The notes under the pieces are model-generated. The model made no database searches. It had not been told where the DNA came from and worked only from the letters and a program-made list of their open reading frames with translations. Of a DNA stretch of 64,000 bases, positions 16,894 to 32,461 are shown piece after piece. A program made the translations under genes and the position numbers. The DNA is from a virus. Each line of letters starts with the position of its first letter. The stretch's first letter is position 1. The stretch is taken from the IMG/VR virus record IMGVR_UViG_3300044641_005643; one strand, 5' to 3'.

Positions 16894-16922
16894 ATAGTAG
16901 CATATTATAATAACCTGGTCAA
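16894..16922 (-). promoter_or_regulatory. sigma70-like promoter, leaderless start
   Basis: TTGACC-N17-TACTAT, ATG 6 nt downstream. Confidence 0.55.
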
Positions 16923-17585
16923 GCGTGGTAAAAGAAATTCTGCCCATTTTCTATGCGCATCTGCTCTAAAATGGTAAGATTGATTTGATTCAAATCCCCG
17001 GTCCGACAGCCATTTATAATATGTCATGTCCGGATCGTATGGGTCTATGTATGAGTCATGCCATTTCAAAGGGTCTTGATTGCGGAAATCATTGTAGGTA
17101 TTAAAGAACAAATGCGGTATTTTTAAATCAGATAATTCAGTGTGTAGTTCGTGTATTTGGTTGTGTGCTAGCTTGGTAGCTTTGTTCCAATCCAAATTAG
17201 CAACATAATGTGTATATTTTTCTTTGATTGAATCGGGCCAGTCCGATCCAACACCACCTGCATTGACTTGCCAATATGCACCATCATGTAACCATTCTTC
17301 TCGTTCCCAGGTACTCCAACCAATTATGATGACATCTGGTTTGTTATTTTTTATGTATTCTCGTGTGGTTCTAATAATTCTTGAATTTGAACTAGCAGAT
17401 TCTGCATCACAATGTAATATGGCAAATAGTTCATTGGCTATATTACAACCATAGCTGGCTCGTTCATTGTCTGGATGGGGAATACGACCCAGGCTATAGA
17501 AAAATGGATCGTCTTCGGCAAAACAGTAGTCATTTACTGCTTCGGCTCCGGCACTATGGCTATCACCATTCACGTAGAGAATCAT
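16905..17585 (-). CDS. SGNH/GDSL hydrolase-like protein
   Basis: YVNGDSHSAG, SN.RIIR, C-terminal H..A.AH. Confidence 0.65.
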   Translation of the reverse strand: MILYVNGDSHSAGAEAVNDYCFAEDDPFFYSLGRIPHPDNERASYGCNIANELFAILHCDAESASSNSRIIRTTREYIKNNKPDVIIIGWSTWEREEWLHDGAYWQVNAGGVGSDWPDSIKEKYTHYVANLDWNKATKLAHNQIHELHTELSDLKIPHLFFNTYNDFRNQDPLKWHDSYIDPYDPDMTYYKWLSDRGFESNQSYHFRADAHRKWAEFLLPRLTRLL

Positions 17586-17980
17586 GAGATCTCGGTACGC
17601 CCATTCCCTAAATCATTTCTATCTACCCGTCTTGGTCTTGCATCATATGGTTGATTGGCTTCCCATTGTTCAAAGTTTTCGTTTAGGATATTGCGACAAA
17701 TACTTTGAAACCAACGATCCACAATCTGATCATCGGTGTCGTCTTTGCGTTGCATGTAACCGGCCTTGACCAGTCTAGCAACAAATACGTCATTCCAATC
17801 TAGTTCAAATGACCCATTACCAATATCGTCAGGATCCAGTTCCACACTTAAAATACTGATATATGGCTCGCCTGCTTCGGTAGCAATCTCTTTGGCTGTT
17901 TTTGCTTTGGTTTTGACTTTTGGTGCTTCTGATTTTGCTTCAGGTTTTGCTTCTGGTCGTTTCTTTAACCAATCGAACAT
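17582..17980 (-). CDS. hypothetical protein
   Basis: ORF coupled to queE. Confidence 0.75.
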   Translation of the reverse strand: MFDWLKKRPEAKPEAKSEAPKVKTKAKTAKEIATEAGEPYISILSVELDPDDIGNGSFELDWNDVFVARLVKAGYMQRKDDTDDQIVDRWFQSICRNILNENFEQWEANQPYDARPRRVDRNDLGNGRTEIS

Positions 17981-18828
17981 TATGTCCCCCATTCGTTCTT
18001 GAACAACGGTACTTGTAATCTATCACTATATCTTAATCCATGTTTCATTGCTAGTAGTGCAACTGCTCTATTGTTTAGCGAATATATACTTTCTACCCCA
18101 CCAACCGGCATCAGATATACGGATCCTCTAAATCCAGCATCTCTATATACTTTGACTGCTTTTAATGCATCAGCAACATCTTCTTCGGTAGCAACAACAA
18201 ATTTCAAGTATGTGTGGCCAACAGTTTGGTATCGATAAACAACGTCAGGACGTATGGCTTCTGACCATGTCTCACCACTAGCTGGCAGCTTGGCACTCAC
18301 ACTAAATGTAACTTCACGGCTTAAATTCAAGCCCGGCATTTGCCATTCCATTAGATATTCAACAAATTCTTCAGATAATTCTTGTGTGCCGTTAGTTTCA
18401 AAAGTAATTTCTTTTAGCTTGCGCATACGTGGATGATTCAACAAATCTGGATAAGCACGTTGCCAACCTAGCAATGGTTCTCCTCCGGTGATAACAAGAT
18501 GCTCATCTCGCCATTTGCCATGAGGCAGTATCTCCATGATACGATCCACAACTGCATTACTTGTTAGTACAGGACTAAGATCTTTAAATCTAGGATCCCA
18601 TGATGCATAACTGTCACATCCAGTTGATACTAAAGGCAGTTGTTCATACTTGGTATATTTGTCAGGATCTACACTGTCAGCTTCTTTACTTAGCTGGCCT
18701 CTAGGCATGCCAAAACCAGCACATTTAAAGTTACAGCCAAATGTACGCAGGAACACACTAGGTACCCCCATATATCTGCCTTCGCCTTGTATTGAATAAA
18801 ACAGTTCTGCTACTTTGATTTTACTCAT
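17980..18828 (-). CDS. queE: 7-carboxy-7-deazaguanine synthase (radical SAM)
   Basis: ELFYSIQGEG, FLRTFGCNFKC...CD, VITGGEP, ETNGT, RLQV. Confidence 0.92.
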   Translation of the reverse strand: MSKIKVAELFYSIQGEGRYMGVPSVFLRTFGCNFKCAGFGMPRGQLSKEADSVDPDKYTKYEQLPLVSTGCDSYASWDPRFKDLSPVLTSNAVVDRIMEILPHGKWRDEHLVITGGEPLLGWQRAYPDLLNHPRMRKLKEITFETNGTQELSEEFVEYLMEWQMPGLNLSREVTFSVSAKLPASGETWSEAIRPDVVYRYQTVGHTYLKFVVATEEDVADALKAVKVYRDAGFRGSVYLMPVGGVESIYSLNNRAVALLAMKHGLRYSDRLQVPLFKNEWGT

Positions 18829-19343
18829 ACAAACAAGTCCTCATTCCATTCACGATGACCTTCACGAAATGCCATATTGCTTTGAGTTTCGCGTACTTCT
18901 ACTCGATAGCACCACAAACGTTCTGCTTCGCTCGGACCCCACATGTCAGGAATATACACTCCATTAACATATTTGTACAACATGTCTGCCAGTCCTTCAC
19001 AACCCAGTCTTGGTAATACAGTGAGCTTGGCCAACTTTTTTTCTTGTAACAGTTTAAAAGTTTCAAGTTCGGGATCGTCTTGTGCTACCAGCAAGGTATG
19101 GTCAAATTGGTCTTCTAGTATAGATTTAAGTTCTTTGAGACCACCATAGTCAGCGGCCCAGTTACGTACATCTAAATGATCTGTGCCAAAGAAAAACTTC
19201 ATACTAAATGAATAGCCATGAATTAGATTGCAGTGACTGTCGGCTCGCCATTGTCTATACGCACACGGAAATGCGTCATGGTATTCTTTCGTAGAAGTAT
19301 ATTTGTAAGTGCGTGGTTGTTGTATTTCGTTAAGATAAAGCAT
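18825..19343 (-). CDS. queD: 6-carboxy-5,6,7,8-tetrahydropterin synthase
   Basis: CNLIHGY, DYGGLK, FDHTLL, GCEGLA, VRET. Confidence 0.88.
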   Translation of the reverse strand: MLYLNEIQQPRTYKYTSTKEYHDAFPCAYRQWRADSHCNLIHGYSFSMKFFFGTDHLDVRNWAADYGGLKELKSILEDQFDHTLLVAQDDPELETFKLLQEKKLAKLTVLPRLGCEGLADMLYKYVNGVYIPDMWGPSEAERLWCYRVEVRETQSNMAFREGHREWNEDLFV

Positions 19344-19348
19344 TTTAT

Positions 19349-19420
19349 TCTCCTATGTTAAGATTTTAGCATAGGCTTGCAGAATTTGTAAAGCGGGATG
19401 AATGCCAAGAAAGGCCGCTG
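19349..19420 (-). ncRNA. candidate cis-regulatory (riboswitch-like) leader of queD-queE
   Basis: Stem AGCGG/CCGCT enclosing GCC/GGC, then hairpin CCTATG/CATAGG covering the AGGAG SD; perfect TATAAATA just upstream. Confidence 0.5.
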
Positions 19421-19430
19421 TGTAGAATTG

Positions 19431-19438
19431 TATTTATA
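19431..19438 (-). promoter_or_regulatory. T4-type late promoter
   Basis: TATAAATA. Confidence 0.6.
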
Positions 19439-19441
19439 CTG

Positions 19442-19990
19442 TTAGTTTTGCCACCAATTTTCCCAAGGGAAAACCACCCAACAGGGATCATCCAGTTTGT
19501 TGATGTTATGACTGCTATAGTCAATATTTTTAAAATTGCTAGATTCATTATTAATTAATACAGCAAATCTTACATTACGATTCCAGATGCCATCCCAGGC
19601 ATAATGCTGTGGCAGGCAACTGCTAGTCCAGTCTTTTTTGATCCACTCTAGTGTGGCACCTGAATCGTTAATGTCATCCACAATCAGAATATTTTTTCGA
19701 TAGGCAGGATCGGTATCAGCATCGCCTGAACCACGCTGATTTTTTGGGACATATCCAAATGCATGTTCGGCCATCCATAGATTACTTTCCGACTCACCGC
19801 CATCTCTCAAACTTACCTTGAGTGTTTCGCAAGGTACATTTAAGTAATGGCTAATCATTGTGGCAGCAGTCAAACCGCCTCTTGTGATACCTACAACATA
19901 GTCTGGGCGCCACTTGCTGTTAGTTATATCTCTACATAGAGTATTGACCATACCTTTTAGTTCTCTATTTGATATCACAAGCTGTTTCAT
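19442..19990 (-). CDS. purine phosphoribosyltransferase (Gpt/XGPRT-like)
   Basis: VVGITRGG, ILIVDDINDSGAT PRPP loop, WVVFPWE. Confidence 0.88.
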   Translation of the reverse strand: MKQLVISNRELKGMVNTLCRDITNSKWRPDYVVGITRGGLTAATMISHYLNVPCETLKVSLRDGGESESNLWMAEHAFGYVPKNQRGSGDADTDPAYRKNILIVDDINDSGATLEWIKKDWTSSCLPQHYAWDGIWNRNVRFAVLINNESSNFKNIDYSSHNINKLDDPCWVVFPWENWWQN

Positions 19991-20499: not shown

Positions 20500-21177
20500 T
20501 TATTCTTTCCGATCTCCAAACAAGTGAAGCAAACTTAGAAACAAATTAATAAAATCTAAGTAAAGGGTAAGAGCACCCATGGCTTCAATTGCAGGACCAT
20601 CAGATTCCATCAACTGTTCTCTTATCTTTTGAGTATCATATGCTGTTAGGCCTAAAAAGATTACAACTGCTGCGGCACTAATTATGGTTTGAAGTAGAGA
20701 TGATCCTATAAAGATATTTACGATGCTTGTGATAATAATAGCGATTAGAGCCACAATCAAGTACTTTCCTAGGCTATCTAAACTTTGTTTGGTAAAATAA
20801 CCATACACACTCATGGTAGCAAATAGAATTGCTGCGCCAAAAAAAGCACTGACAATGCTGGCTGAAGTATATACAACAAAGATTGTGGCAAAACTTAACC
20901 CCATTAAGGCCGCAAAACCGTGAAGGCACAACTGCGCCACTGACTTACTGGGATTGTTTCCTAAAACGTATCCCACAGCAAATATAGCCGCTAGCGGAGC
21001 AAACAACACAATCCATTTGACAATTCCTGTAAATAGAAACGCCATTACGGCTGCATTAGATGATACCAAATAACTTACCACCATACTGGTGATTACCGCT
21101 AACGCCATGTTATTATAAACACGAATCATGGCATCATTGATTTCTGAGGCTGTTTTATAAGGTAAAGCGTATTCCAT
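20500..21177 (-). CDS. Bax inhibitor-1/YccA family membrane protein
   Basis: 7 hydrophobic segments; YDTQKI...ALTLYLDFINLF; start moved to MEYALP (AGGAG SD). Confidence 0.92.
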   Translation of the reverse strand: MEYALPYKTASEINDAMIRVYNNMALAVITSMVVSYLVSSNAAVMAFLFTGIVKWIVLFAPLAAIFAVGYVLGNNPSKSVAQLCLHGFAALMGLSFATIFVVYTSASIVSAFFGAAILFATMSVYGYFTKQSLDSLGKYLIVALIAIIITSIVNIFIGSSLLQTIISAAAVVIFLGLTAYDTQKIREQLMESDGPAIEAMGALTLYLDFINLFLSLLHLFGDRKE

Positions 21178-21187
21178 TTTAATCTCC

Positions 21188-21889
21188 TTATCTTGGTGCA
21201 AACTCTTGTTGCAGTTTGATGTTATCAAAAAATTCTTTCTTGACACTAGGGTCATCTTTGAACACACCTTTTAGAACTGTGGTCTGGGTGAGACTACTGT
21301 GTGCCATAATGCCGCGATTCTCGCAGCAACCGTGGGTGGCCTGAATGTATACAGCCACGTCTTTACTTCCAGTTGCAAATTCGATTTCTCTTGCAATGTC
21401 CATACAAAGCTCTTCCTGCAGAGTGCCTCTCCGGGCACACCACTGGGCGATTCTTGTATACTTTGAGAGACCAATGAGTTTGGGACCAGCAATAATCCCA
21501 ATATAAGCCACGCCAGTAACAGGCTGGTGATGATGGCTGCACACGCTTTTGAGCTCGCTTCGTACGACCAACATACCTTCGTATTTTCCATCAGTGTCAT
21601 TTGGAAATGCAGTTGCATTTGGAGTCGGTTCATATCTACCTGCCATCAATTCATTGTAATACATTTTGGCAAGACGCCGGGCTGTGCCTTGGCTGTTGGG
21701 ATCTGTAACTCTGTCAATAAGCAAAGTATCCAGCACTTGTTCAAATGCTTCAGTTGCTTCATCGATTAGCAAATCCTTGTCTGCATCATCAACATAACTG
21801 CTGATATTGTCTCCGGCCCAATATCTTTTGCCGTTTGCTTGCATTTGTTGTCTAATGCGATCACTTACTCGTGTGTATTTCATAATCAC
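21188..21889 (-). CDS. folE: GTP cyclohydrolase I
   Basis: SVCSHH, GLSKYTR, QEEL, HGCCENRG. Confidence 0.93.
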   Translation of the reverse strand: MIMKYTRVSDRIRQQMQANGKRYWAGDNISSYVDDADKDLLIDEATEAFEQVLDTLLIDRVTDPNSQGTARRLAKMYYNELMAGRYEPTPNATAFPNDTDGKYEGMLVVRSELKSVCSHHHQPVTGVAYIGIIAGPKLIGLSKYTRIAQWCARRGTLQEELCMDIAREIEFATGSKDVAVYIQATHGCCENRGIMAHSSLTQTTVLKGVFKDDPSVKKEFFDNIKLQQEFAPR

Positions 21890-27960: not shown

Positions 27961-28175
27961 GTGCGTTCTTTTTTAGCATACCACATGTTGCGCGGTTCAC
28001 GACCTTTGAGACTGCGTTGAAAATCACCCCAGGGAGTTTTTTCATTGTATAGATGACGTTCGTCAAACGGGTGTCCGTATTGCACACAAAATTCACGATA
28101 ACGTTCGAGGTCATCAAAAATTTGATTGACTTCGGGTTTCATAGTCAAATACTTCTTAAGCCATTTAGCGGCCAT
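27957..28175 (-). CDS. hypothetical protein
   Basis: GGAG SD; coupled ORF. Confidence 0.75.
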   Translation of the reverse strand: MAAKWLKKYLTMKPEVNQIFDDLERYREFCVQYGHPFDERHLYNEKTPWGDFQRSLKGREPRNMWYAKKERT

Positions 28176-29151
28176 TTCGTTCTCCTTGGAAGTGTTGTTT
28201 AAGCTGAATAATTATTGGATCAAAAATTAATTTTTTAATATCGTTTGATATAAGTCTTTGTTGATTATATAGTCTTCTTTGATAAGTTTCAAATTTAATT
28301 TGTTCATGATCTAAAGTTGCTAAATGATCTAAGACTTTATGCATCTGAATAATTCGATGTTGCCAATCGTCGATGTTGTCATAGAATTGATGATCAACAA
28401 TATCATCAAATACATCAAATCCTAAATTTCTAAGAAGTTGCACAGCACCTTTTCTTGCGCATAATATTGGAATTTGTCCTACATGAAAAACTTTGTAGGT
28501 TTTTTCGCTAATATACAAATCCTCAACAGTATTTTCGGCAACAATATGAAATAGGCTTTCTTGGTACACTGGAAGATCAACAGCATACATAGACTCTACT
28601 ACATCAGTTTCAACAGTGGGCCATGTATAGTACTCTTGTTCAATTTGTTTAACAAATGAATAAAATTCTGTATCTTTTGCATACCAGTTAAGTTCAAATG
28701 GTGAATGTAATTTGAATTTAGAAATAAGAATTTGGTTAAAATATGATTTTTCTTTAAGTTTTAAATAGTTAAATATTTTTCCCGGGCGATAATTATTAAA
28801 ATTTCTTGATGCACAGGAAAAAAGATAATTTGTCTTAATTAGGCTAATATCTCTGATAATAATTGACTGAGTAAGCCACATAAACAAATAAATGCAGTAA
28901 TAAAATATATTGTTTTTTGGTTGAGTTATAAATTCTGTATCAAAAGTAAAAATAAAAACATTTGGTCCTATATTTTCCGGTATATCTAATTTACCATGGA
29001 ATTTATACAAAAAAATTATATCTTCTGTGGATGAATAGATATAATCTTCAACTGGAAAACATTGGGCCTTCTTTATTATCTCGAATAAATCTTTATCGTA
29101 GTTTTTAATGTATTGAACTAATGGTAAAAAATGAGAATTGTCAACCCACAT
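28165..29151 (-). CDS. glycosyltransferase-like protein (GT10-like C-terminus)
   Basis: HIVAEN...ISEKTYK...GFDVFDDIVDH.FYD; AT-rich; start uncertain. Confidence 0.5.
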   Translation of the reverse strand: MWVDNSHFLPLVQYIKNYDKDLFEIIKKAQCFPVEDYIYSSTEDIIFLYKFHGKLDIPENIGPNVFIFTFDTEFITQPKNNIFYYCIYLFMWLTQSIIIRDISLIKTNYLFSCASRNFNNYRPGKIFNYLKLKEKSYFNQILISKFKLHSPFELNWYAKDTEFYSFVKQIEQEYYTWPTVETDVVESMYAVDLPVYQESLFHIVAENTVEDLYISEKTYKVFHVGQIPILCARKGAVQLLRNLGFDVFDDIVDHQFYDNIDDWQHRIIQMHKVLDHLATLDHEQIKFETYQRRLYNQQRLISNDIKKLIFDPIIIQLKQHFQGERNGR

Positions 29152-29153
29152 TG

Positions 29154-29588
29154 TTAGATTTTTATTGATAGAGAGGGTTGATGAGTTGCGTAAGTGATAG
29201 TACAACCGTTTTCGTTGTCTTCACTTACACTGATTGTGACATCGCGTCCAGGATACCTGTCGGCAATTTGAATATACAAATCATCTGCGATCATTTCGCA
29301 GCTTTTGTAATCTAGTTCTAGAACCGCGTTCCCACCACTATACAGCCCTTCCAACCATCGTTTGAATTGGATGAACTCGATTTCCCGATCATTATGGAAC
29401 ACATCGATTGACACCCTAAAGTGGAAGATGTGACGATGAGGGTAACCAAGAAAACTAACGTCCGCAAGACCAGGATCCTCCAATGCTGCTGGGTATTTAT
29501 GAACGCCTTCCTTTTGAAAGGTAACCCATATTTGTCTTGCAGCACGGCCCATAATTCTATCAGCAGTTTCTCTTTGTTCTTGATTCAT
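29154..29588 (-). CDS. QueD-like T-fold protein, DpdL-like (putative CDG decarboxylase)
   Basis: LGYPHRHIF (LxxxHRHxF), REIEFI, SCEMIA, VSEDNENG; near the dpdA-like gene. Confidence 0.65.
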   Translation of the reverse strand: MNQEQRETADRIMGRAARQIWVTFQKEGVHKYPAALEDPGLADVSFLGYPHRHIFHFRVSIDVFHNDREIEFIQFKRWLEGLYSGGNAVLELDYKSCEMIADDLYIQIADRYPGRDVTISVSEDNENGCTITYATHQPSLSIKI

Positions 29589-30306: not shown

Positions 30307-31845
30307 TCACTCCTCCAAATGAGATTGAATTAGATTTGATGCCTCTTGATCTGACATTTCATTTTCGTCATCTTCAACTACTTCAAACAGTGCATTGAAC
30401 ATTGTGTTACTGTTTTTGGTTTTTTTACCTTTAAATCCTCTTGTGCCAACAATGTCCATCCAATATCTTTCATAATGTTCAATGATAGATTCGGAAGTTG
30501 CTCTATCTGGTGCTGCAAATATAGCCTCAACAATGTCTTCAAATTTTGAATGATCACCATTGCGATACCATAACATGGCCGGTCTTTGTCCAGAATCAAA
30601 AGTTCTATTGGCTCGTTGCACACTTTCAATATGCATCCAAACATTATGACTCATCATTAATGCGTAACTAAAACTATCCCAACTGGTGCGACCTTCCTTT
30701 CCGTTTTTGTTTAGATCACCAGGCTTGTATATACAAACGTCTTTTATTGATAAATGCTTGCTAACGGGCGATTCATCAAACACATCAAAAATTCCATCCT
30801 GCAATACTGCGTCTCGAAATGTTCTGGTGTCTGTAGCGTATTTCTTGTCGTCGGCACTGGGTGACATTCTGTAACACCATTTTGCGTCATGAGGCAAGTC
30901 AATTTGATGATACATCTGTCCGTTGGCTGTGGCCAGAAACGGACTGGCACAATCAAAACTGATAGTAAAAGCAGGATTGACATACTTGCGTACTGCTCTC
31001 TGTACTACTGTTAATAATACTGCCCATTCTAATTTACTTGTTCCCAAAAAGTGCATCCAATCATGCACGCCTTCTTGAAGAAGGTTATCGTATTTTAACG
31101 CAATCAAACGTTTCAGCACAAGATGTATATCACACATGTTCTGTCCGCCCATAGCCCATCCGTCAAAATGTGTGTCTGGGTACTTGGCAGGATCACAAAA
31201 CTCTTTCATTTCTTCGTACCACTCATTGGCACTGGTATGATTGTCGCCTTGTAAAACATTTAAAAACTTTGCACCACCATTTTTCTTACCTCGACGATGC
31301 TGCATGAAATAGTTGTTGTTGAACTTTGTGGCATCAACGGCTTCTTCGAGTGTTGATATACCACAAGCGGCACTTGCCTTCTTGTCATGTATTACCCAGG
31401 TGGGAATATCAAGAATCATGCCATAATCAGCAATCCCATCGAGCCATTTAAGAACTGCTGAACGTTTTTTTTCAGCCTTGGCACAACCTGAGTTGGCACG
31501 CCAGTCACCTTCCCACAAGCCCTTGGCAATTTGGAATCCACCCGAATCACCTAGCATGAAAGTGCCGGGCTCGCGTTTGCGAACCATATCTTCACTGGCG
31601 TCTTCTTTGTTGAGATCTAGGTTGGCGTGACCACCTGAGTACAGACTCCATCTGTAAGGAAACAGGGCCTGTTGGCTGTTGAGCCAATTGAACTGTTCCA
31701 TGTCTTGTAACGCCGGTGGCATACGAGCAGGATCAACATAGTCATTACTAACACGTTGCTTTCCTATAAAAGTTGCGTAAAAACCAGAAATAGCAGGCAA
31801 GAACACTGCATAATCTGATTGTTTTACTGTTAAATTATCCTGCAT
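30307..31845 (-). CDS. TGT-family base-exchange transglycosylase (DpdA-like)
   Basis: GDSGGFQ, MILDIP, NVLQG, GWAMGG, HFLG, SFDCASP, HN; start moved to MQDNL. Confidence 0.8.
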   Translation of the reverse strand: MQDNLTVKQSDYAVFLPAISGFYATFIGKQRVSNDYVDPARMPPALQDMEQFNWLNSQQALFPYRWSLYSGGHANLDLNKEDASEDMVRKREPGTFMLGDSGGFQIAKGLWEGDWRANSGCAKAEKKRSAVLKWLDGIADYGMILDIPTWVIHDKKASAACGISTLEEAVDATKFNNNYFMQHRRGKKNGGAKFLNVLQGDNHTSANEWYEEMKEFCDPAKYPDTHFDGWAMGGQNMCDIHLVLKRLIALKYDNLLQEGVHDWMHFLGTSKLEWAVLLTVVQRAVRKYVNPAFTISFDCASPFLATANGQMYHQIDLPHDAKWCYRMSPSADDKKYATDTRTFRDAVLQDGIFDVFDESPVSKHLSIKDVCIYKPGDLNKNGKEGRTSWDSFSYALMMSHNVWMHIESVQRANRTFDSGQRPAMLWYRNGDHSKFEDIVEAIFAAPDRATSESIIEHYERYWMDIVGTRGFKGKKTKNSNTMFNALFEVVEDDENEMSDQEASNLIQSHLEE

Positions 31846-32461
31846 AAAATTTAATTGAGTTGATGAGTTTGTAATCTTCGACAAAATATTTTTCTAGATT
31901 ATAAAGGTATTTAGAATTTTGTTCAATGGCTTTTGTAAAAATAGTTTTAAACTTTTTTCTTTCCGGATCGTGATCTGAAATATGTTGATAATCATAATTG
32001 AAATACCTATTGTTCATATCTTTATCATTTAGAAACTTACTAAAATGCTGTCTGTAATTTTCGCCACACCAAAAAAAAGTACAATTGTTGAAATTTAATC
32101 CGTCAATGAATAGACTTTGTTTTTCGGTGTGATCGTCAAAAGCCACCCGATCAAATATGATGTCAAAAAAAGATTTTGAAAAATAAGCTGTATCAATTTT
32201 GGAATGATACAAACACATATATTCTGCCATGCCACTGATCCATCTTTCAACAGGATCGCGTAAAACAATTATTGCATGTTTAGAATATAAATTATCCTTA
32301 TGATAATTGTAAAATTCCCATCCCCAGTCTTTTAAGTTTGGTTTAGTCCATGAACTGGCATTTTTTGGAATATAGATATACATGGTATCTGTGTTTTGGT
32401 GACTCATACATTCACCAAACACATGACCTTTATTTTTGTAGTAATCTACAAACTGATTCAC
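31835..32461 (-). CDS. sulfotransferase-like protein
   Basis: YIYIPKNASS (5'-PSB loop), LRDPVERWISG (3'-PB motif), H...Q, DY. Confidence 0.65.
   Translation of the reverse strand: MNQFVDYYKNKGHVFGECMSHQNTDTMYIYIPKNASSWTKPNLKDWGWEFYNYHKDNLYSKHAIIVLRDPVERWISGMAEYMCLYHSKIDTAYFSKSFFDIIFDRVAFDDHTEKQSLFIDGLNFNNCTFFWCGENYRQHFSKFLNDKDMNNRYFNYDYQHISDHDPERKKFKTIFTKAIEQNSKYLYNLEKYFVEDYKLINSIKFYAG

Follow-up and report, generated by a model that had tools for sequence, protein, structure and literature searches.

The 5' leader of a phage queD gene encodes, on the evidence of covariation among its relatives, an H-type pseudoknot of about 46 nt (19419-19374, minus strand), and a strand that can mask the ribosome-binding site of queD starts within the last strand of this knot. 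We consider it rather probable that the leader is a cis-acting riboswitch with ligand-ON translational control, and we put it forward as a candidate for an undescribed class. Two hallmarks of riboswitches were found: a covariation-supported structure in the 5' leader of one pathway's genes, and a strand common to the aptamer and its expression platform, this second one computationally and in three platform classes. An earlier note on this DNA, made from its letters alone, had read the queD-queE leader as a phage-borne aptamer joined to an expression platform. The comparative data strongly support that proposal, on account of the covariation, the invariant junction bases, the constant association with queD in divergent QueD subfamilies and the interchangeable platforms. 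The nested-hairpin inner fold in the same proposal did not survive, and a pseudoknot takes its place. All coordinates without a locus prefix refer to the window, that is, the whole 64,000-nucleotide stretch of viral DNA that was analysed.

Genomic context of the leader

The leader lies in a non-coding gap of 98 nt (19344-19441, minus strand) between queD and a PRTase-like ORF, and the letters quoted from it in the earlier note are correct. The main features of the locus are as follows.

21188-21889: gene for FolE (PF01227), upstream of queD
19442-19990: PRTase-like ORF (PF00156), on the other side of the 98-nt gap from queD
19354-19350, minus strand: Shine-Dalgarno (SD) sequence AGGAG of queD
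19343-19341, minus strand: ATG start codon of queD
18825-19343, minus strand: queD, QueD-like 6-pyruvoyl-tetrahydropterin synthase of 172 aa (PF01242, 2.2e-14; phrog_2389, 2.4e-36)
17980-18828, minus strand: queE, QueE-like radical SAM protein of 282 aa (PF04055; phrog_2076, 1.7e-52), overlapping the stop of queD

We infer that queD is the gene regulated by the leader, and queE is probably co-regulated with it. Phages can replace the guanine of their own DNA via the 7-deazaguanine pathway and escape restriction (PMC10516641), and a locus with FolE, QueD and QueE and no recognised QueC fits the gene set of the CDG or 7-deazaguanine branch of that pathway (PMC10516641). Searches of Pfam and PHROGs recognised no QueC downstream in the window, and for the ORFs at 28165-29205 and 30307-31884 (both minus strand) no DpdA could be confirmed by searches of Pfam, PHROGs and PDB sequences. 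Between folE and the PRTase gene lies a gene for a membrane protein of the Bax-inhibitor-1 family (20500-21267, minus strand; PF01027, 4.9e-51), an unusual passenger for a 7-deazaguanine locus. On the 3' side of queE are two ORFs without an informative family (136 and 226 aa; 16905-17992, minus strand) that accompany queE in many relatives.

Comparative evidence for a pseudoknot

A protein search of IMG/VR returned more than 589 relatives of QueD, and the leaders at the 80 loci that we examined are strikingly similar, with compensating base changes. The elements of the fold, in 5' to 3' order of the transcript, are these.

19415-19419, minus strand: P1 5' strand, AGCGG, pairing with 19392-19396
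19407-19414, minus strand: L1, starting N-C-U, 4-12 nt long in relatives
19399-19406, minus strand: P2 5' strand (GGCAU, U, CA), pairing with 19374-19381
19397-19398, minus strand: L2, a U and the unpaired C19397, directly 5' of the P1 3' strand
19392-19396, minus strand: P1 3' strand, CCGCU, partner of 19415-19419
19382-19391, minus strand: L3, 10 nt, with three invariant A and a terminal UC
19374-19381, minus strand: P2 3' strand (UG, C, AAGCC), whose final two C are the first two bases of the SD-masking hairpin
19352-19375, minus strand: SD-masking hairpin, a class A platform, part of the minimum free energy (MFE) fold

P1 had been drawn in the earlier note as an outer stem AGCGG/CCGCU, and it held: 99-100% of cells pair, with compensatory, two-sided changes at four of the five pairs. 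This level of pairing holds also in alignments that neither modelled P1 as pairs nor filtered for pairing. The inner GCC/GGC hairpin of the same drawing is not borne out, as 66.2% of cells pair versus 65.4% in shuffles, with zero two-sided changes, and the suggested CUUG/CAAG pairing fares no better (55.8% versus 54.6% in shuffles). Comparative pairing shows instead that the GGC-GCC contact, which had been offered as an alternative, is real and forms the core of the pseudoknot helix.

That helix, P2, joins the 3' part of the P1 loop to the tail: one pair is formed by the neighbours of two invariant motifs, the base directly 5' of UCA and the base directly 3' of UCUGC, and the helix extends outward from this pair. 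It spans 7-10 positions between loop and tail, broken by a conserved U-C mismatch, with 81-92% of cells paired and two-sided changes at six of seven pairs. The first four variable pairs, which are those proximal to the junction, are each 83-90% paired and each use several Watson-Crick types. Taken jointly they pair in 86% of cells, compared with 52 +/- 2% in 1000 shuffles and with far lower values in slid registers, and 24 distinct, fully paired versions of this 4-bp segment were seen. The invariant UCA and UGC lengthen P2 across the conserved U-C mismatch; where UCA has become UCG, UGC has become CGC, and there are no mixed cases among sequences aligned in register. The P2 of the window carries A-A and U-C mismatches and has a duplex energy of just -4.1 kcal/mol.

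Over 145 distinct aptamers, 88.9% of the cells of P1 and P2 are paired, against 74.8 +/- 0.6 in shuffles, and slid-register controls give 32-49% pairing. The covariation score in the same set is 0.368, against 0.131 in shuffles, a value reached by none of 500 shuffles, and 10 of the 12 pairs of P1 and P2 show two-sided changes. Two further samples were seeded by protein only, from two divergent QueD subfamilies, and were thus blind to the RNA; here pairing is 90.4% and 94.7%, with covariation scores of 0.445 and 0.475. Conservation and covariation among homologs, on which the earlier note had made its reading partly depend, were both found, in the 145 distinct aptamers and in the two protein-seeded samples. 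G-U pairs are frequent, which makes the fold specific to the sense strand. From this comparative evidence, we conclude that the queD leader encodes an H-type pseudoknot.

The unpaired positions are as telling as the helices. L1 is pyrimidine-rich, opening CCU or UCU, and varies in length, yet in the alignment of relatives its second and third bases, C and U, reach 90% conservation or more, and C19397 is an invariant column in 149 aptamers. The nearly invariant bases, namely the N-C-U of L1, the unpaired C19397 and the A-rich L3 ending in UC, all converge at the P1/P2 junction.

Folding of the single sequence was tried as a marker of the leader and rejected: its MFE of -15.7 kcal/mol (z = -0.55) is no better than that of shuffles, 60 of 200 of which fold equally well.

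Two observations concern the relation of L3 to P1. The middle P1 pair (columns 3/27 of alignment A2; 19417/19394) covaries with L3 columns 34 and 36 (19388 and 19386). When that pair is C-G, the L3 bases are C/U and A, and when it is U-A or A-U, they are A and mostly non-A. This pattern may be the signature of a base triple or may reflect mere shared ancestry. A compact variant (loci L381, L387, L389, L392 and L399) has a 4-bp P1, AAGG/CCUU, and an L3 of 7 nt instead of 10; it lies about 60-110 nt upstream of queD at 1501, behind sigma-70-type promoters, and was missed by our own covariance model at E <= 0.01. The covariation and the shortening of L3 together with a 4-bp P1 would fit an L3 that runs along P1.

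Three platforms that share one aptamer strand

Downstream of the knot, three unrelated classes of expression platform were seen. In class A, the type in the window, a hairpin buries the AGG of the SD; in class B, a long-range helix is formed onto the start codon; and in class C, a helix of the type GCCAUUG/CAAUGGC is formed onto the start codon. In all three, the masking strand starts within the P2 3' strand. Of 149 leaders, 94-100% have a nested MFE fold in which two or more nucleotides of the P2 3' strand, about 5 on average, are paired with the region from SD to start. Blocking the P2 3' strand costs 4-6.6 kcal/mol in nested folds of these leaders. For the window, an energy of -7.1 kcal/mol was computed for the platform fold, which comprises the SD hairpin and whatever pairs flank it; this becomes -2.6 when the P2 strand is blocked, and the hairpin scores 0 without the two C-G pairs that it shares with P2. 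The earlier note had described this hairpin as burying most of AGGAG; the hairpin itself stands, and its arms, CCUAUG (19375-19370) and CAUAGG (19357-19352), cover AGG. Its stem covaries in relatives, with CCUAUG/CAUAGG replaced by CCUAUA/UAUAGG.

As the masking helix forms by itself, the default state would be off. Since the P2 3' strand is the masking strand in all three platforms, formation of the knot should free the site, which would make the element an ON switch; the earlier note had given no direction of control. We infer this ON logic from the sequence overlap and from the energies of nested folds, which cannot score pseudoknots.

Many class A leaders whose gene starts GCAUGGCA (for example L320:1470-1515) have a second possible masking helix besides the SD hairpin, in which the P2 3' strand and the AUGC that follows it pair with the start-codon region. 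A correlation between P2 strength and platform strength (Spearman 0.36) was set aside because both helices share bases.

Position of the aptamer in the transcript

Promoter-like sequences lie immediately upstream of P1, in the window and in its relatives.

19431-19438, minus strand: TATAAATA, a T4-late-type promoter-like box, ending 11 nt ahead of P1
59935, 57340, 51922, 42308 and 34201, minus strand: examples of NATAAATA

Within the window, NATAAATA has 14 copies on the gene strand versus 2 on the other strand, mostly 6-35 nt before ORF starts, and it looks like the T4-late-type promoter motif of this phage. A TTGAC-N16-19-TAnnnT promoter was found in 41 distinct upstream regions and ends 7-8 nt before P1 in 31 of them; 107 other distinct relatives have an ATAAATA-like box, mostly ending 8 or 11 nt before P1. 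Judged by these predicted promoters, the motif starts 7-11 nt past the promoter and the aptamer is the extreme 5' end of the mRNA. No terminator was found in the leader.

A further putative promoter, sigma-70-like, is present inside the leader (19363-19392, minus strand: TTTACA, 18 nt, TG-n-TAAAAT), with its extended -10 in the loop of the hairpin that masks the SD. Of 80 class A leaders, 74 have a TGnTAnnnT box, which is a perfect TGCTATAAT in 40 and ends 6-7 nt before the SD in 65 of the 74. Transcripts from this inner promoter would have neither the aptamer nor the masking strand. In platform classes B and C the -10 is mostly absent, while the aptamer is kept. In the T4 lysozyme type of arrangement, a promoter lies inside a hairpin that masks the ribosome-binding site. 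Class A leaders resemble it in having a promoter-like -10 in the loop of the SD-masking hairpin, so that such transcripts would escape masking; they differ in combining a sigma-70-like inner promoter with a late-like outer one, and the arrangement is confined to one platform class.

Occurrence among phages

A degenerate DNA pattern of 19 nt, taken from the conserved core and blind to the downstream gene, matched at least 120 contigs. Among the matches listed, the whole motif is present at 116 of 119 pattern loci, and nearly all sites precede QueD, either directly or after one inserted ORF. In the converse approach, our own covariance model was applied to the two QueD-protein-seeded samples of 80 loci each and placed the motif immediately ahead of queD in 68 loci of one and 74 of the other. 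The QueD genes behind the motif belong to four subfamilies with about 40% mutual identity, and the flanking genes vary, with FolE, PRTase or small ORFs upstream and QueE, PRTase or others downstream. The window has one copy of the motif (62.6 bits, E = 6e-14), the next best hit of the same model scoring 9.3 bits. A small number of phages have one more ORF, of 113-293 aa, between motif and queD (L015:2157-2987, L128:6409-6750, L140:4432-5163, L173:4922-5803 and L182:7776-8657), so that the leader there would control the first gene of a longer operon.

All members are metagenome contigs: the motif was found on uncultured IMG/VR contigs alone, representing hundreds of phages. Searches of cultured phage records gave no match with 1.8 kb of DNA and chance matches only with a 53-nt aptamer query. 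The closest cultured phages with QueD, namely ACP17, R5C and Me-ZS1, have no such leader, and their queD is coupled to the upstream gene. When bacterial and archaeal genomes were scanned with the pattern, all 120 matches listed were chance matches by regular expression and covariance model. In these samples the motif seems to be phage-only.

Relation to known RNA classes

Rfam 15 was searched with the window, with the leader alone and with seven relatives, at gathering thresholds and at E <= 10. The leader has no match at either setting, and neither Rfam 15 nor the searchable literature held a description of this queD-leader motif or of a fourth preQ1 class. The earlier note had stated that the leader does not fit preQ1-I, -II or -III, and the Rfam covariance models confirm this. 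For preQ1-I (RF00522, gathering threshold 39 bits), there is no match even at E <= 10 in the window and seven diverse relatives, while the same model, in a positive control, scores Paenibacillus sites at 45-55 bits. Conversely, our own model R1, run on three loci with true preQ1-I sites, gave noise only, at 14.7 bits or less and elsewhere in the loci. The preQ1-III model (RF02680) found no match in the Rfam search. A preQ1-II hit (RF01054) was rejected: it has 16.5 bits against a threshold of 47, and its alignment skips the 69-nt core and covers only the promoter-like flank, with the inner-promoter box, and SD-AUG. Weak matches to freshwater-2 (12.7 bits) and Mu-gpT-DE (13 bits), on SD-AUG or promoter-like flanks, were discarded as spurious.

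The leader nonetheless has much in common with preQ1-I (RF00522; types I-III). Both are small H-type pseudoknots with a 5-bp P1 ending G-G/C-C and with a conserved unpaired C directly 5' of the P1 3' strand (PMC10622847), in both L3 opens (U/A)UA-N-AAA, as seen in real Paenibacillus examples, and both stand ahead of 7-deazaguanine pathway genes. The differences are in dimensions and in output. P2 takes up 7-10 positions with a U-C mismatch in the leader and 3-4 bp in preQ1-I; L1 is 4-12 nt versus 2-3; and L3 is 10 nt, with an extra UUC, versus about 6-8 nt. Moreover, the P2 3' strand is an anti-RBS strand in the leader, whereas in preQ1-I it holds the SD and gives an OFF switch, so the logic would be inverted. 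The leader motif, unlike preQ1-I, has been seen in uncultured phages only. Because the covariance models fail in both directions, because P2, L1 and L3 are longer and because of the anti-RBS strand, we do not count the motif as a member of preQ1-I and file it as a separate class, with a preQ1-I-type pseudoknot and a predicted inverted output.

Phages seldom carry riboswitches, and the examples described to date are copies of bacterial classes (PMC9004378). The glutamine riboswitches (glnA RNA) of aquatic phages resemble the leader in being carried by phages and in regulating phage genes (PMC9004378). However, glnA RNA in phages is a copy of a bacterial class (PMC9004378), whereas the leader motif is not in the 120 bacterial and archaeal matches listed.

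Proposed mechanism and ligand

In the mechanism that we propose, transcription would start a few bases before P1, and the first 46 nt or so (19419-19374) would fold as the H-type pseudoknot. A small ligand would sit at the P1/P2 junction, where the N-C-U of L1, the unpaired C and the A-rich L3 meet. With the ligand absent, the masking helix would win, and queD, and probably also queE, would be poorly translated; with the ligand present, the knot would be stabilised, the masking strand removed and the ribosome-binding site opened. The adenine (add) riboswitch is a translational ON switch of this kind, in which a strand of the aptamer is common to the helix that masks the ribosome-binding site. 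In both, a ligand-stabilised aptamer would free the site through the strand shared with the masking helix; add is built on a three-way junction and the leader on a pseudoknot, and the ligands and genes are unrelated.

In biosynthetic operons, shut-off by the end product is commoner, and an ON switch therefore calls for a precursor or a signal as its ligand. By analogy with preQ1-I, whose specificity cytidine C19397 matches in position (PMC10622847), the unpaired C suggests a ligand with a guanine-like Watson-Crick face. Such a face is common to 7-deazaguanines, pterins and guanine. Candidates are thus a 7-deazaguanine (preQ0, preQ1, CDG or 7-deazaguanine itself), a pterin (H2NTP, which is the FolE product, CPH4 or a folate) and guanine or GTP. 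The earlier note had listed GTP/guanine, a pterin, CDG and 7-deazaguanine as possible ligands. The ON logic and the frequent folE-queD position favour a precursor or signal, such as H2NTP, guanine/GTP or a folate, over an end product, and the likeness of the pocket to that of preQ1-I favours a 7-deazaguanine.

Alternative explanations

The same aptamer could instead work as an OFF switch, in which an end product (preQ0, CDG or 7-deazaguanine) binds and translation falls, the knot stacking on and stabilising what remains of the masking helix, or L1 pairing with the SD. Known preQ1 riboswitches on que genes are indeed OFF switches (PMC10622847), the pocket-like features are similar to those of preQ1-I, and the pyrimidine-rich L1 could, with its opening CCU or UCU, pair with AGG. 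We nevertheless think an OFF switch decidedly unlikely, as the P2 3' strand is here the SD-masking strand and not the SD, with an overlap of 2-5 nt in three independent platforms, and as a masking hairpin that forms without the aptamer would leave the default state already off. A translational operator for a protein or other trans-acting factor, be it a phage RNA-binding regulator or QueD, also seems unlikely to us. Pseudoknots bound by protein are known in phage mRNA leaders, that of T4 gene 32 among them, and the invariant single-stranded bases could contact a protein. However, the junction stays nearly constant across QueD proteins of only about 40% identity and across varying gene neighbourhoods, no gene for an RNA-binding protein travels with the motif, and interchangeable platforms fused to one strand of a knot are typical of riboswitches. 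An autoregulatory operator of the gene 32 type, moreover, would precede the gene of a nucleic-acid-binding protein, whereas the gene downstream of this leader encodes the T-fold enzyme QueD.

It is quite improbable that the leader is a ligand-independent 5' structure, such as an mRNA stabiliser, a thermometer or a device that fixes a low rate of translation. Its position at the very 5' end of the transcript would suit a stabiliser, and SD hairpins may serve as thermometers, but neither function needs invariant junction bases or a strand-competing pseudoknot in three designs, and the exclusive link to queD would be left unexplained. We give hardly any credence to an element that acts as DNA, as promoter or operator. 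The sigma-70-like promoter with its extended -10 does overlap L3 and the hairpin loop; yet the many compensatory G-U pairs would be A-C mismatches on the opposite strand, and the aptamer persists in the platform classes that mostly have no -10. Furthermore, the canonical promoters just upstream of P1 imply that the element is transcribed; they place the aptamer at the start of the mRNA, so that a reading purely at the DNA level is ruled out.

Implications

Returning to the ligand-ON riboswitch that we favour, we see a somewhat better than even chance that it constitutes a phage-confined class, in which a preQ1-I-like knot has been rewired as an ON switch that senses a guanine-faced metabolite and times the synthesis of precursors for 7-deazaguanine DNA hypermodification. 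Possible metabolites are a 7-deazaguanine, a pterin such as the FolE product, and guanine set free when DNA bases are exchanged. If this is true, phages alone would carry a riboswitch class, present on hundreds of contigs, that controls the entry step of the pathway by which they replace the guanine of their DNA. The element would be a compact natural ON switch of about 46 nt, possibly for a ligand without a known natural aptamer, and would illustrate the rewiring of a preQ1-I-like scaffold. The control of DNA hypermodification would then become accessible in vitro by way of a short synthetic RNA.
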